NCBI GenBank assembly: GCA_963976285.1
Contig: CAXBJY010000005.1
Coordinates: 75,242-139,241 of the forward strand
From: an uncultured Gammaproteobacteria bacterium
Lineage (GTDB): Bacteria; Pseudomonadota; Gammaproteobacteria; Ga0077536
Direction: 5' to 3'
Length of the DNA: 64,000 bases
Shown here: positions 5,616 through 9,733 of the stretch, piece by piece
How the letters are laid out: each line of letters starts with the position of its first letter
Numbering within the stretch: the stretch's first letter is position 1
Position numbers and translations under genes: made by a program
Notes under the pieces: generated by a model
The model's database searches: none
Told to the model about the DNA's origin: nothing
The model's input: only the letters and a program-made list of their open reading frames with translations

Positions 5616-6548
5616 TTAGCTCGCGCGCCGGCGCAAGCCCGCGAGCGCGATGCCGGCCGAGCCGAACAACCACACCGCGCCGGGGATTGGCACGGGGTCG
5701 ATGAGCGCCGAAGCGCGGTACTCGGTGACGATTTCGAGCGAGAAATAACCGTCCTCGGCTATATCGGGATGGAACAGCGACAGCGTGCCGCTGTTCAGCG
5801 GGCCGCCGATCCCGGGATCCGCCTCGGTGAAGATCGAGGTCTGGCCGGGAGTTGAATTGCCGAGGCTCGGCGGCTCGTCACCGCAGACAGCGCAGCGCGT
5901 GAGCACGGCTTCGTCGAGCACGTCCTCGTTGTCGTCGAGCAGGCGTACGGACAGGTTGATGAAGCTGCTCGTATACCCGGGGTCGTTGTTCGCGAGCGTC
6001 ATGGTCCACAGCACATCGAAAGCGAAGCGCAGATCGATCGTCGGCTCATCACCGTAGTAATAGCCGTACAGGTAAGTAACGTCCGTGCCCGAATACGTCG
6101 TCGGCAGCATGCTCGCGCTGGCGGGACCGGTCGCCATCGCCGTCATCGAGCCATCGATCACGATGGGTGGGGCGCCGGCGCCGTAAACCGGCGGGTTCGC
6201 GAACGGATCGTCCGGGTCGTACGCGGGGTTCAGCAGAGTCGCGATGGCGTCGTAGTTGTCGCCGTCATCAATCCGGATACCGCCGATGGTTTGCGTGATG
6301 TCGTTGCTCGTCGTGCCCATCCGGGGTGCGTCGAAGACCATTTCCTGGAAGCCTTCGGGGATTTCGAACTCGACGTTCAATGATTCGTCACCGCTGCCCG
6401 GCGCACCGCTGCTGTCGGCGCCGAGAAAGCCGAGCGTAAACGTGAAATCGAGGTCGGCCGTGTTCGCGGCAAGCGTGCCTTCGGCGCTGAACAGGCCGCA
6501 CACGGTGAGCAGGATGGCTAGACGATTCGCGCGTGATGGGCGGTTCAT
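5616..6548 (-). CDS. Secreted acidic protein with VPLPA/PEP-CTERM-type sorting signal
   Basis: N-terminal signal peptide; C-terminus PVPIPGAVWLFGSAGIALAGLRRRAS. Confidence 0.85.
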   Translation of the reverse strand: MNRPSRANRLAILLTVCGLFSAEGTLAANTADLDFTFTLGFLGADSSGAPGSGDESLNVEFEIPEGFQEMVFDAPRMGTTSNDITQTIGGIRIDDGDNYDAIATLLNPAYDPDDPFANPPVYGAGAPPIVIDGSMTAMATGPASASMLPTTYSGTDVTYLYGYYYGDEPTIDLRFAFDVLWTMTLANNDPGYTSSFINLSVRLLDDNEDVLDEAVLTRCAVCGDEPPSLGNSTPGQTSIFTEADPGIGGPLNSGTLSLFHPDIAEDGYFSLEIVTEYRASALIDPVPIPGAVWLFGSAGIALAGLRRRAS

Positions 6549-6900: not shown

Positions 6901-7728
6901 ATGGCACTGCAGATAGGAAAAATACTTGCGATCGTCGATCCGACGACGGACAAACAACTCGCGCTTTCGCGCGCGCTCGGCATCGCGGAACAACTCGATG
7001 CCGCCGTGCATGCCTACATCTGCTGTTATTCGCCGCTTGAAACGAGTCATTTTCTCGCGCTGAAACGCGCGGAAATCGCCCGCCACGAGGCGTGGCTGGA
7101 TCGCCTGCTCGAAAGCGAAAATCTCGGCGGGGTCGAGGTCACGACGCAGGTCGAATGGCGCGAGGACTGGCGTGAAGGGCTGGCCGAAGCAGCGGCGCAG
7201 GAAGAGTGCGACCTGATCGTGAAAACCGCGTTCGAACATGCGGAACCGGGGCGCCTGCTGCTGAAAACATCCGACTGGAGCGTGCTGCGCAGCGCGCAGA
7301 GCCCGGTACTGCTCGTGAAGCGCGAGTCGCTCGTCGCGGTCAAGCGCGTGCTCATCGCGATTAACCCGAAAGTTGAAGACGACAAGCATCGGCGCCTGAA
7401 CGAGAGCATGATCGCGTTTGCGAAGTTGCTGCGCGAGCAGGATGATGCGATCGAATTACATGCCGTGTCGGCCTACACCGGCGCGGAGCCGTTCACGCAT
7501 CCGCCGGAACTCGCCGCGCTGATCGGGATTGATGAAAGCCAGGCGCATTGTACGCAGGGTTCGCCGGGCGACGTCATCGTCGACTGCGCGAAGCTGCTGC
7601 AGTCCGAACTCGTCGTCATGGGGACGGTGTCGCGTTCCGGGCTGTCCGGGCTCGCAAAACCGAATACGGCGGAGCAGGCGCTCGACCGTCTCTCGGCCGA
7701 CGTGCTCGTGTTCACGTCGCCCGACTGA
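6901..7728 (+). CDS. uspE: Universal stress protein, tandem-domain UspE-like
   Basis: KILAIVDPT, SDWSVLR..SPVLLVK, VMGTVSRSGLSG...NTAEQ. Confidence 0.85.
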   Translation: MALQIGKILAIVDPTTDKQLALSRALGIAEQLDAAVHAYICCYSPLETSHFLALKRAEIARHEAWLDRLLESENLGGVEVTTQVEWREDWREGLAEAAAQEECDLIVKTAFEHAEPGRLLLKTSDWSVLRSAQSPVLLVKRESLVAVKRVLIAINPKVEDDKHRRLNESMIAFAKLLREQDDAIELHAVSAYTGAEPFTHPPELAALIGIDESQAHCTQGSPGDVIVDCAKLLQSELVVMGTVSRSGLSGLAKPNTAEQALDRLSADVLVFTSPD

Positions 7729-7747
7729 GCGCCACCCCGACGGCGGT

Positions 7748-8626
7748 CTAGCCTGCTGCGCTGCGCGCCGCGAGTTTGCGCGCGCGCACCGCGGCCTGCT
7801 CGGCGCGACGCGCATCGCCCGCGGCGCGCAGCGCGTCGATGTTGTCCGGCCCCACGCGCAGGAAATTCGCCTTCCAGTCATCCCGGGCATCCCACACGAG
7901 CGGCGTTTGCACGGTTTCGCCCGGAGTATCGGCATTGCGCAGGCGCCCGAGCGCCGTGTCCATGATGATCCGTTTGCTGTCATCGTCATACGGGCGGCCG
8001 CACGGGTTGCCGAGCGGGTAGTCCGTAAAGACGAAACGCGGAACACCGCAATACTCCACGATGTCTTTCGCCGAGCCGGTGATGACGGTGGCGATGCCGT
8101 GTGCTTCGAGTTGTCGCGCGACCAGACTCACGGTCTGGTGACAAACGGGTCACAACGGCACGAGCAGGGCGACGTCAACCGCATCCTCGACGCAGCCCGC
8201 GACGATCGCGGGGGCATCGCGCTCGATCGTGTGGCGTTGACTGTATTGCGTTGGCACGCAGTAGAAACGCGGGGCAAGGCGCCCGAGTTCGCCGGCCGCG
8301 ACGCGCCGCTCGAGTTCGCGCACGGGGAAGTAGCTGTCGCGGTCTTCGGTATGCGTGGCATCGCGATCCCACGACAGATCGCCGGTAAAAAATTTCTCCG
8401 GCGGGTTGCCGAGATCGCCGATGTGCAGGCGGCGATGTTCCTTGCGGTAGCTCTCATCGGGCATCGACGTGGTCACGATCGTCACCGTGCAGTCGCTGAG
8501 TTCGCGTCGCGGACGGGCGAACGGAATGTCATCGAAATGCGACCATTTGTACGGCTTGTCATAGCCCTGCGCGGCGTAATAAGCGCGTGTGCGTTCCATG
8601 TAAGCGACGCTCGTATCGTCTTTCAT
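7748..8626 (-). CDS. Selenoprotein, glycine/sarcosine/betaine/proline reductase subunit B (GrdB/PrdB)-like; Sec at codon 159 (UGA 8150-8152)
   Basis: Two ORF-track ORFs are in frame; reads VDVALLVPL-U-PVCHQTVSLVARQLEAHGIATV, then DYPLGNPCGRP; hairpin follows the UGA. Confidence 0.85.
8121..8139 (-). promoter_or_regulatory. Bacterial SECIS-like hairpin
   Basis: mRNA ACCAGAC-CGUGA-GUCUGGU, 7-bp stem beginning at the 11th nt after UGA. Confidence 0.75.
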
Positions 8627-8679
8627 ACCTTTGTCCTGGATTGACTGGATTCGTTTCGTGGCGGCGGGCCGCCGCCGGT

Positions 8680-8988
8680 TCATCGTTTCAGCAACTCGCG
8701 TTCCGCGGAAATTTCGCTCGCGACGACTACGGCGCGCTCGATTTTTGCGCTCGCGAGGAGACGGTCGAATTCTTCATCCGCTTGTTGCAGGTGGGCATTC
8801 AGGGATGCTTCGTCCGTCCATTTTTCGATCAGCCGGATTTCCGACGGCTCCGCGAGGTTGCGCGTGAATACGTAATCGAGGTTTCCTTCGTCCCGGCGAC
8901 TGCGTTCCGCACGGCGCTTCAGCGCCGGCACAAGCCGCTCGGCTTCGTCGGCGGATTCGAGCGTGATCGTACCGAGGATGATCAGCAT
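8680..8988 (-). CDS. Antibiotic biosynthesis monooxygenase (ABM)/quinol monooxygenase-like protein
   Basis: SRRDEGNLDY.F...IRLIEKWTDEASLNAH; GGAG RBS before ATG at 8988. Confidence 0.8.
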   Translation of the reverse strand: MLIILGTITLESADEAERLVPALKRRAERSRRDEGNLDYVFTRNLAEPSEIRLIEKWTDEASLNAHLQQADEEFDRLLASAKIERAVVVASEISAERELLKR

Positions 8989-9001: not shown

Positions 9002-9733
9002 TCACGTGAGGTGAGCTGCGAGCGCGGCGCCGACGATATCGGGATCGGAGCGACGCGTGTAGTTGTCCGACTGGTCCATCCACACGACTTTGCCATCCGC
9101 ATCGACGAGCAGCGATGTTGGCACCGGCAGTCCCGCGCGGCCCGGGATTTTGAAGTTGTTGAAATTCTGGTTGCGGTAGCCAAAACGATCGATCAGTTCG
9201 AGTTCGGGATCCGCGAGCATCGTTGCCTCGAGCCCGTGCATGCCGCGACCCAATGTGATCTCTTTCGGCGTGTCCGTGGATACGGTCACGATGCGGACCC
9301 CCGCCGCATCGAGCGTCGGCCGCAATTCTTCCCATCGCCGTAACTCGGCGACACAGTAGGGTCACCAGTGGCCACGAAAGAATTTGATCAGGACCGGATT
9401 CCCGGCAAGCTCGCTGCTGTCAAACGTATTGCCTGCCGCGTCGAGCGCGGTGAACGCCGGGATCGCATCACCGACCCGGATCCTGTCGGCGCCGGCGCGC
9501 TGGGCGCCGGTCATGACGAAATACAGGAACAGGAAGCCGAGACCCGCGGCCCAGGCCGCGGCGGCGCCGCCGGCGAAACTCAGCGATAACAGGCCGAGCC
9601 CGCCGCCGATACCCCAGGCCACTGCGAACGGCCCCGGATTTTGCGGGATAGCGACGCGAAACGCGCGCCGGAACCACACAATCGTGGTTACGAGAACGAT
9701 GGCCAGTGCAATCAGCCCGGGGCTTGCCATCAT
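9002..9733 (-). CDS. Membrane-anchored AhpC/TSA (peroxiredoxin-like) selenoprotein; Sec at codon 124 (UGA 9362-9364)
   Basis: Hydrophobic N-terminus, VGDAIPAFTA, VLIKFFRGHW-U-PYCVAEL, VTVSTD, LADP, PVPTSLLVDADGKV; same frame across the UGA. Confidence 0.88.
9335..9351 (-). promoter_or_regulatory. Bacterial SECIS-like hairpin
   Basis: mRNA UCGCCG-AGUUA-CGGCGA, 17 nt, beginning at the 11th nt after UGA. Confidence 0.75.

Follow-up and report, generated by a model that had tools for sequence, protein, structure and literature searches.

The window analysed here, a 64,000-nucleotide stretch of DNA from an uncultured gammaproteobacterium, carries on its minus strand two open reading frames, 8150..8683 and 7748..8131, that occupy one frame, offset by 402 nt (134 codons), with the TGA at 8152-8150 as the sole stop codon separating them. 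Gene callers split genes of this kind at the in-frame TGA. Translated through this codon, the two frames give a single protein containing ...LLVPL-U-PVCHQTVSL..., which reproduces both the shared frame and the readthrough peptide proposed in an earlier sequence-only reading of the window. Two further genes lie on the same strand, in the order redoxin, ABM-domain gene, PrdB-like gene (last), with gaps of 13 nt and 53 nt. The features of the locus are as follows.

9002..9733, minus strand: membrane-anchored AhpC/TSA-type redoxin with a W-U-P-Y-C motif, first gene of the trio (Pfam AhpC-TSA, 85.7 bits)
9364-9362, minus strand: in-frame TGA of the redoxin gene, which splits it into two open reading frames (readthrough translation)
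9352-9334, minus strand: redoxin hairpin of 7 bp with the loop AGUUA, 9 nt after the UGA
8680..8988, minus strand: ABM-domain protein of 102 aa (Pfam ABM, 47.2 bits), 53 nt before the selenoprotein start
8628..8636, minus strand: purine-rich GGACAAAGG just 5' of the ATG, a possible ribosome-binding site read from the sequence
8626..7748, minus strand: predicted PrdB-like selenoprotein gene of 292 codons, with ATG at 8626-8624, stop codon TAG at 7750-7748 and selenocysteine (Sec) as codon 159
8150..8152, minus strand: UGA decoded as selenocysteine, which opens the U-P-V-C motif; homologues have an invariant Cys in this column
8115..8147, minus strand: putative, weakly supported extended SECIS, an imperfect lower helix around the upper stem-loop
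8121..8139, minus strand: SECIS upper stem-loop of 7 bp (8139-8133 with 8127-8121), with the loop CGUGA at 8132-8128

The start of the PrdB-like gene was assigned to the ATG at 8626 because a same-genus orthologue (85% identical) has a 4-nt indel between the stop codon of the upstream gene and this ATG, and because in-frame conservation with the orthologue starts there; the gene therefore spans 8626..7748, the limits that had been given for it earlier. The ATG at 8683, which overlaps the stop codon of the ABM gene, was considered as a start and is ruled out by the same indel. The AAGG ahead of ATG 8626 is kept in the orthologue, and the sequence GGACAAAGG at this place may serve as the ribosome-binding site. 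If the UGA stopped translation, the N-terminal fragment would have 158 residues from ATG 8626 or 177 from ATG 8683, and the separately called C-terminal open reading frame has 127 residues. Residue U178 of the translation P0001, which is numbered from the upstream ATG 8683, is the Sec encoded by codon 159.

On the plus strand, a gene for a tandem universal stress protein (6901..7728; Usp, 90 bits) runs towards the selenoprotein gene, and the stop codons of the two are only 19 nt apart. Another gene of the window, at 5616-6548 on the minus strand, encodes a 310-aa secreted-looking protein that has no Pfam match and ends in a hydrophobic stretch followed by RRR, presumably a sorting signal of the PEP-CTERM type.

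The genome to which the window belongs (G000; 6.0 Mb in 192 contigs, 97% complete) possesses the whole apparatus for selenocysteine incorporation, with SelA, SelB, SelD and tRNA-Sec all above curated cut-offs. The selA gene (587.7 bits), the selB gene (417 bits) and the tRNA-Sec gene are directly consecutive on contig C20 (C20:58868-62371; L001, L012, L048), and selD (281.5 bits) is on contig C71. The tRNA-Sec, with the anticodon tca, was matched by ARAGORN and scores 60.2 bits in Rfam. Among 40 related genomes, SelB exceeds its cut-off in 18 of the 20 that have the TGA-containing gene; the two carriers that lack it are drafts of 90-92% completeness, and one relative of 100% completeness has neither the gene nor SelB. 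Because these relatives are not independent, the co-occurrence with SelB is a matter of consistency and not of statistics.

A homology search of a collection of 5.8 billion proteins gave 2277 matches among the 8000 candidates scored, and 29 full-length homologues, hand-picked across 120 listed of these matches, were aligned with the window protein. They cover both of its halves at 40-53% identity, with strong conservation on both sides of the TGA, and the UGA column is Cys in all 29, within an invariant C-P-x-C-H-Q (C-P-V-C-H-Q-T) motif. Homologues thus carry Cys at this position, and not Trp or Arg, both in the alignment and in 20 of the 78 named loci with the motif; moreover, the Cys forms carry both halves as one open frame and not as two separate genes.

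The TGA itself is widespread. Matches were found in 21 of 41 genomes, including the window's own, and among the 54 matches listed, two of which are in the window's own genome, 48 have an in-frame TGA. The 20 related genomes with matches all belong to the window's bacterial family, in which 20 of the 24 genomes have matches, compared with none of the 16 genomes that represent other families of the class. Of 31 relatives' loci that were fetched, 30 contain the motif (28 with U and two with C), and a scan of species genomes gave 80 named loci, of which 58 have U, 20 have C and two have no match to the motif. Sec forms are present in Myxococcota, Pseudomonadales, Burkholderiales, Reyranella, Acetobacteraceae, Dehalococcoidia, Acidimicrobiia, Binatia and Thermodesulfobacteriota; by phylum, the named loci with TGA belong to Myxococcota, Pseudomonadota, Chloroflexota, Actinomycetota, Binatota and others.

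Altogether 85 Sec genes and 22 Cys genes were compared at the same motif, leaving out of the motif, hairpin and tree counts L035, which contains N, and L033, L068 and L090, which gave no match to the motif expression. The Sec:Cys ratio of these 107 genes is not a population estimate, because the sample was picked by similarity to a Sec form. A FastTree phylogeny of the 107 genes requires three changes between Sec and Cys, compared with 20.4 expected for shuffled labels, and groups the window gene, with good support, in a clade whose 13 members are without exception Sec forms from its own bacterial family.

The sequence-only reading had also drawn a 7-bp stem with a CGUGA loop at 8121-8139 and had taken this hairpin for a SECIS element. 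The hairpin (8139..8121) begins 10 nt past the UGA, and the spacing from the UGA to the loop is 17 nt. Folded alone, the upper stem-loop has an energy of -9.1 kcal/mol, a stability that no dinucleotide shuffle out of 200 attains. With its flanks, a 38-nt fold reaches -12.1 kcal/mol and is equalled by 16 of 200 shuffles, so that only the upper stem-loop can be called strong; none of the seven lower-stem pairs is formed throughout, the counts running from 9 to 26 among 27 sequences. The bacterial SECIS model in the Fig. 2 legend of PMC13188914 has an apical loop of 3-9 nt on a stem of 4-16 bp, a G within the first two positions of the loop that is usually followed by G or U, a distance of 16-37 nt from the UGA to the loop, and a minimum free energy of -7.5 kcal/mol or lower. 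The window hairpin, with a loop of 5 nt, a stem of 7 bp, G-U at loop positions 2-3, and the spacing and energy given above, lies within this model on all four counts.

Like the SECIS of E. coli fdhF and the bSECISearch consensus, the window stem-loop is part of the coding region and follows the UGA directly, and it shares with the consensus a small apical loop that contains G-U as well as a spacing inside the model range. Unlike the fdhF element, it is embedded in conserved H-Q-T-V-S-L codons, where RNA and protein constraints overlap. Its sequence is presumably unrelated to that of the fdhF SECIS. A permissive Rfam scan of positions 7600-8800 gave chance-level matches only and no SECIS family.

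The best control for the hairpin is provided by the Cys forms, since the peptide that they encode is almost identical. The full stem of seven pairs is present in 66 of the 85 Sec genes (mean 6.7 pairs) and in none of the 22 Cys genes (mean 5.0 pairs), the 23-nt stretch folds on average at -8.8 kcal/mol in Sec genes versus -4.7 kcal/mol in Cys genes, and the loop codon that supplies G-U-G is GTG in 78 of the 85 Sec genes versus four of the 22 Cys genes. Two Cys paralogues of the same genus fold no better than shuffles. The hairpin therefore tracks the TGA, as expected of a SECIS element, and in this respect too the sequence-only reading stands. Because the hairpin largely overlies the strongly conserved H-Q-T-V-S-L codons, over which the Cys forms still average 5.0 of seven pairs, its conservation is partly driven by the protein. 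In 27 Sec genes from relatives, 83.6% of the cells are paired across the 14 proposed pairs, compared with 24-37% when the partner is slid by one to three columns, a contrast inflated by the relatedness of the 27 sequences. Only one pair in this set has changes on both sides: at pair 21-37, 19 sequences have C-G, seven have U-A and one is unpaired, and the change couples a synonymous position of a His codon with the first position of a Val/Ile codon. Changes from G-C to A-U occur in the named loci L079, L083, L089 and L066.

Two other accounts of the TGA have to be weighed: it may be a real stop codon, leaving a pseudogene or two small genes, or the UGA may be decoded as Cys or Trp without selenium. 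A search of representatives gave 263 clusters of the PrdB-like family at E <= 1e-30, and by a hand count the best 150 representatives include about 30 N-terminal halves, whose ends lie at profile positions 172-174, and 14 C-terminal halves, which begin at 177-182. The two kinds flank the Sec column (175) and count in favour of these accounts. Both accounts fit poorly, however, with a TGA that is conserved at one column across phyla and accompanied by a hairpin specific to the TGA forms, with the strong protein conservation on both of its sides, with only three Sec/Cys changes on the 107-gene tree, with a genome that has the full Sec machinery, and with the use of TGA as an ordinary stop in neighbouring genes, for example at the end of the Usp gene. 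These accounts, taken together, are barely credible.

It is very likely instead that 8626..7748 is one gene, encoding a cytoplasmic, stand-alone PrdB-like selenoprotein of 292 residues in which Sec is inserted at the UGA in dependence on SelB and the hairpin. SelB carrying Sec-tRNA(Sec) would bind the hairpin downstream of UGA 8152-8150 and insert selenocysteine, and comparative evidence suggests that the product would be the full-length protein rather than the 158-residue fragment and the 127-residue open reading frame. The hidden UxxC selenoprotein of the sequence-only reading is thus supported by the Cys column, by the Cys forms in one frame and by the hairpin that tracks the TGA.

The same reading had called the protein GrdB/PrdB-like, and this identity holds in part: homology to PrdB and the UxxC motif stand, but the relationship is distant, and the scores reach none of the curated family cut-offs. 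Its best family match is the PrdB equivalog TIGR04483 (E 2.3e-15), at 56.7 bits against a cut-off of 300, with window residues 113-262 aligned to model positions 82-232. The GrdB-type models give 16-27 bits (E 1.9e-6 to 4.5e-3), TIGR01917 scoring 16 against a cut-off of 602, and Pfam GRDB (PF07355) gives 11.5 bits against a gathering score of 22. Compared with PrdB of Clostridium/Clostridioides, the window protein is homologous over most of its length and shares Sec-x-x-Cys, but a C-terminal helix extension of about 45 residues is predicted in addition. Compared with GrdB, GrdF and GrdH (PF07355, TIGR01917/01918), similarity around UxxC is weak but detectable, and the window protein is shorter (about 290 versus about 430 residues).

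Two further PrdB-like paralogues were found in the same genome; in both, the motif again begins with a TGA codon, and a similar hairpin follows it.

Contig C119:2392-3282 (L010 1516-2376), minus strand: paralogue with U-P-V-C and an in-frame TGA
Contig C22:71308-71994 (L011 1408-2265), plus strand: paralogue with U-P-D-C and an in-frame TGA

Against the PrdB model the two paralogues score 114.3 and 137.7 bits, with alignment over positions 14-235, and one of them exceeds the Pfam GRDB cut-off with 27.6 bits. Since both score closer to PrdB, the window gene is the most diverged of the three PrdB-like genes.

An AlphaFold2 model of the window protein (mean pLDDT 86, pTM 0.85) has a Rossmann-like alpha/beta domain, in which the predicted Sec U178 lies between a strand (171-175) and a helix (179-194) in P0001 numbering. 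The model thus puts the Sec at the N-terminal end of the helix, three residues before the invariant Cys (U-P-V-C-H-Q-T). Such a junction of strand and helix is the usual place for a redox-active CxxC. A sequence search of the PDB with the family profile found no relative, the only match being a designed protein at E 0.14, and Foldseek against the PDB found nothing at E <= 0.001. A wide VIA-align comparison gave as its best match a LacI-type regulator (Z 9.4, rmsd 4.2 Å, 141 residues), followed by many short-chain dehydrogenases at Z of about 8; as far as the predicted model goes, these are matches to a generic Rossmann-like arrangement and not to a specific relative. One homologue of the Cys type (P0071, 446 aa) carries a NUDIX domain fused at its N terminus (PF00293, precomputed), which may hint at a nucleotide-linked substrate.

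The match to the PrdB equivalog and the shared UxxC would also be expected if the window protein were the B subunit of a genuine D-proline reductase, or of a glycine, betaine or sarcosine reductase, with its pyruvoyl partner encoded elsewhere in the genome, and databases label homologues 'D-proline reductase (dithiol) PrdB' or 'glycine reductase'. The gene for the PrdA pyruvoyl proprotein normally adjoins prdB. Unlike prdB, the window gene has no PrdA-type (PF09338) gene adjacent to it or found in the genome; its neighbours are instead the redoxin, the ABM protein and the Usp protein. The search for PF09338, which covers PrdA and GrdE, gave no match in the window's genome and five of five other genomes with Sec forms, none in 14 control genomes, and none in an 81-genome phylum sample that includes one of the six carriers, so that the sensitivity of the search is undemonstrated. 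For PF04723 (GrdA) there was no match in the window's own genome, and the 14 control genomes were likewise silent. The PrdA/GrdE partner is accordingly described as 'not found' rather than absent, since the PF09338 search matched in no control, and this want of a positive control in the partner searches leaves some room for a reductase subunit.

Other evidence points away from a reductase subunit. The scores of the window protein are far below the PrdB, GrdB and Pfam GRDB cut-offs, and the pyruvoyl partners were not found, PF09338 in six of six genomes with Sec forms and PF04723 in the window's own. Across the 80 named loci, with flanks of 4 kb, no neighbour is conserved: the commonest family, SDR, occurs at nine of the 80 loci, followed by alpha/beta hydrolase (eight), family III CoA-transferase (eight) and TctC receptor (seven). 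The carriers include lineages of aerobic type, such as Reyranella, Pseudohongiella and Acidimicrobiia. A subunit of a genuine reductase of this kind is, on these grounds, quite improbable. Because pyruvoyl partners were not found and no neighbour is conserved, D-proline or glycine is probably not the substrate; the window protein is probably not a proline or glycine reductase, and 'proline reductase' is probably a misnomer for the stand-alone clade.

The genes upstream of the PrdB-like gene suggest another connection. The redoxin is taken to be a second selenoprotein gene because it has an in-frame TGA and its own hairpin, which folds at -13.5 kcal/mol (four of 200 shuffles are as stable). Its TGA is kept in 14 of 15 matches, from the window's genome and 12 relatives, and the protein resembles the UxxC selenoproteins called 'Prx-like thiol:disulfide oxidoreductase'. 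The spacing of the ABM gene suggests that it is co-transcribed with the PrdB-like gene. The redoxin, the ABM protein and the PrdB-like protein might then form a dedicated relay of two selenoproteins, in which the redoxin would recycle the selenenyl-sulfide of the PrdB-like protein. The position of the three genes on one strand with short gaps, the TGA and hairpin of both outer genes, and the conservation of the trio in a same-genus genome (G003) all favour such a relay. Beyond the window, however, the redoxin adjoins the PrdB-like gene in only one of 110 other loci, that of G003; in 11 of the 12 relatives that have a TGA-bearing redoxin match, this match lies elsewhere, for example on a different contig in G005, or at distances of 22 kb (G014) and 56 kb (G017) from paralogues. 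A dedicated relay is therefore unlikely as an account of the PrdB-like protein; it is possible in the window and is not a general feature.

With the reductase and the relay so placed, there is an even chance that the stand-alone PrdB-like proteins constitute a separate family of pyruvoyl-independent selenol/thiol enzymes with substrates of their own, widespread in bacteria of aerobic type from many phyla and expanded to two to four copies per genome in the window's bacterial family, one copy being wired to the membrane-anchored U-x-x-C redoxin in the window's genus. The catalytic cycle can be sketched for the window protein purely by analogy with PrdB and GrdB: the selenolate would attack a bound substrate and reductively cleave a bond, the neighbouring Cys would resolve the adduct to form a selenenyl-sulfide, and a thiol reductant would recycle it.

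The family is not new, and the window gene belongs to a clade that has been catalogued as a selenoprotein since 2005. In the Sargasso Sea study of Zhang, Fomenko and Gladyshev (PMC1088965), 42 selenoprotein sequences with UxxC are given as 'Proline reductase PrdB', and the supplement has TGA reads with ...LVPL-u-PVCHQTV... under this name, 'PVCHQT' occurring 13 times. The Global Ocean Sampling (GOS) study of 2008 by Zhang and Gladyshev (PMC2398784) reported 235 Sec and 110 Cys members, and 'PVCHQT' occurs 55 times in its supplementary sequence file, with at least two of the passages under '#Proline reductase'. A review of 2026 (PMC13188914) still names the family D-proline reductase (TIGR04483, UxxC). 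The window gene carries, with TGA, the clade pattern ...VP[LN]-U-PVCHQTV[SG]LVARxLE..., the motif of which is present in both supplements, and it resembles the environmental reads of 2005 and 2008 in clade, motif and kind of hairpin codons. In the available portions of PMC1088965 and PMC2398784, the D-proline reductase function is assigned by name only, whereas the partner subunit was not found here. A literature search found no published, tested function for the stand-alone PrdB-like clade.

The window gene is, then, a genuine but unannotated member of a known selenoprotein family. Whereas the members of 2005 and 2008 are anonymous marine reads, this gene is complete and comes from an assembled genome, with three paralogues and a neighbouring selenoprotein gene. 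What is new is a single genome that combines the full Sec machinery with three paralogues, a hairpin that differs cleanly between the Sec and the Cys forms and, probably, the second selenoprotein gene two genes upstream and the case against the 'proline reductase' name.

Because gene callers split the gene into two open reading frames, counts of the selenoproteome of this genome come out too low; at least four genes of this kind are present, three PrdB-like and one redoxin. The PrdB-like family is among the most abundant selenoprotein families of ocean metagenomes, by the counts in the Sargasso and GOS studies (PMC1088965, PMC2398784), and its name is borrowed from anaerobic clostridia, although the partner subunit that the function needs was not found in the genomes searched. 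The hairpin codons differ sharply between the Sec and the Cys forms, which provides a simple annotation rule for the family, and three diverged paralogues with TGA and hairpin in one genome are a useful start for finding the real substrate.
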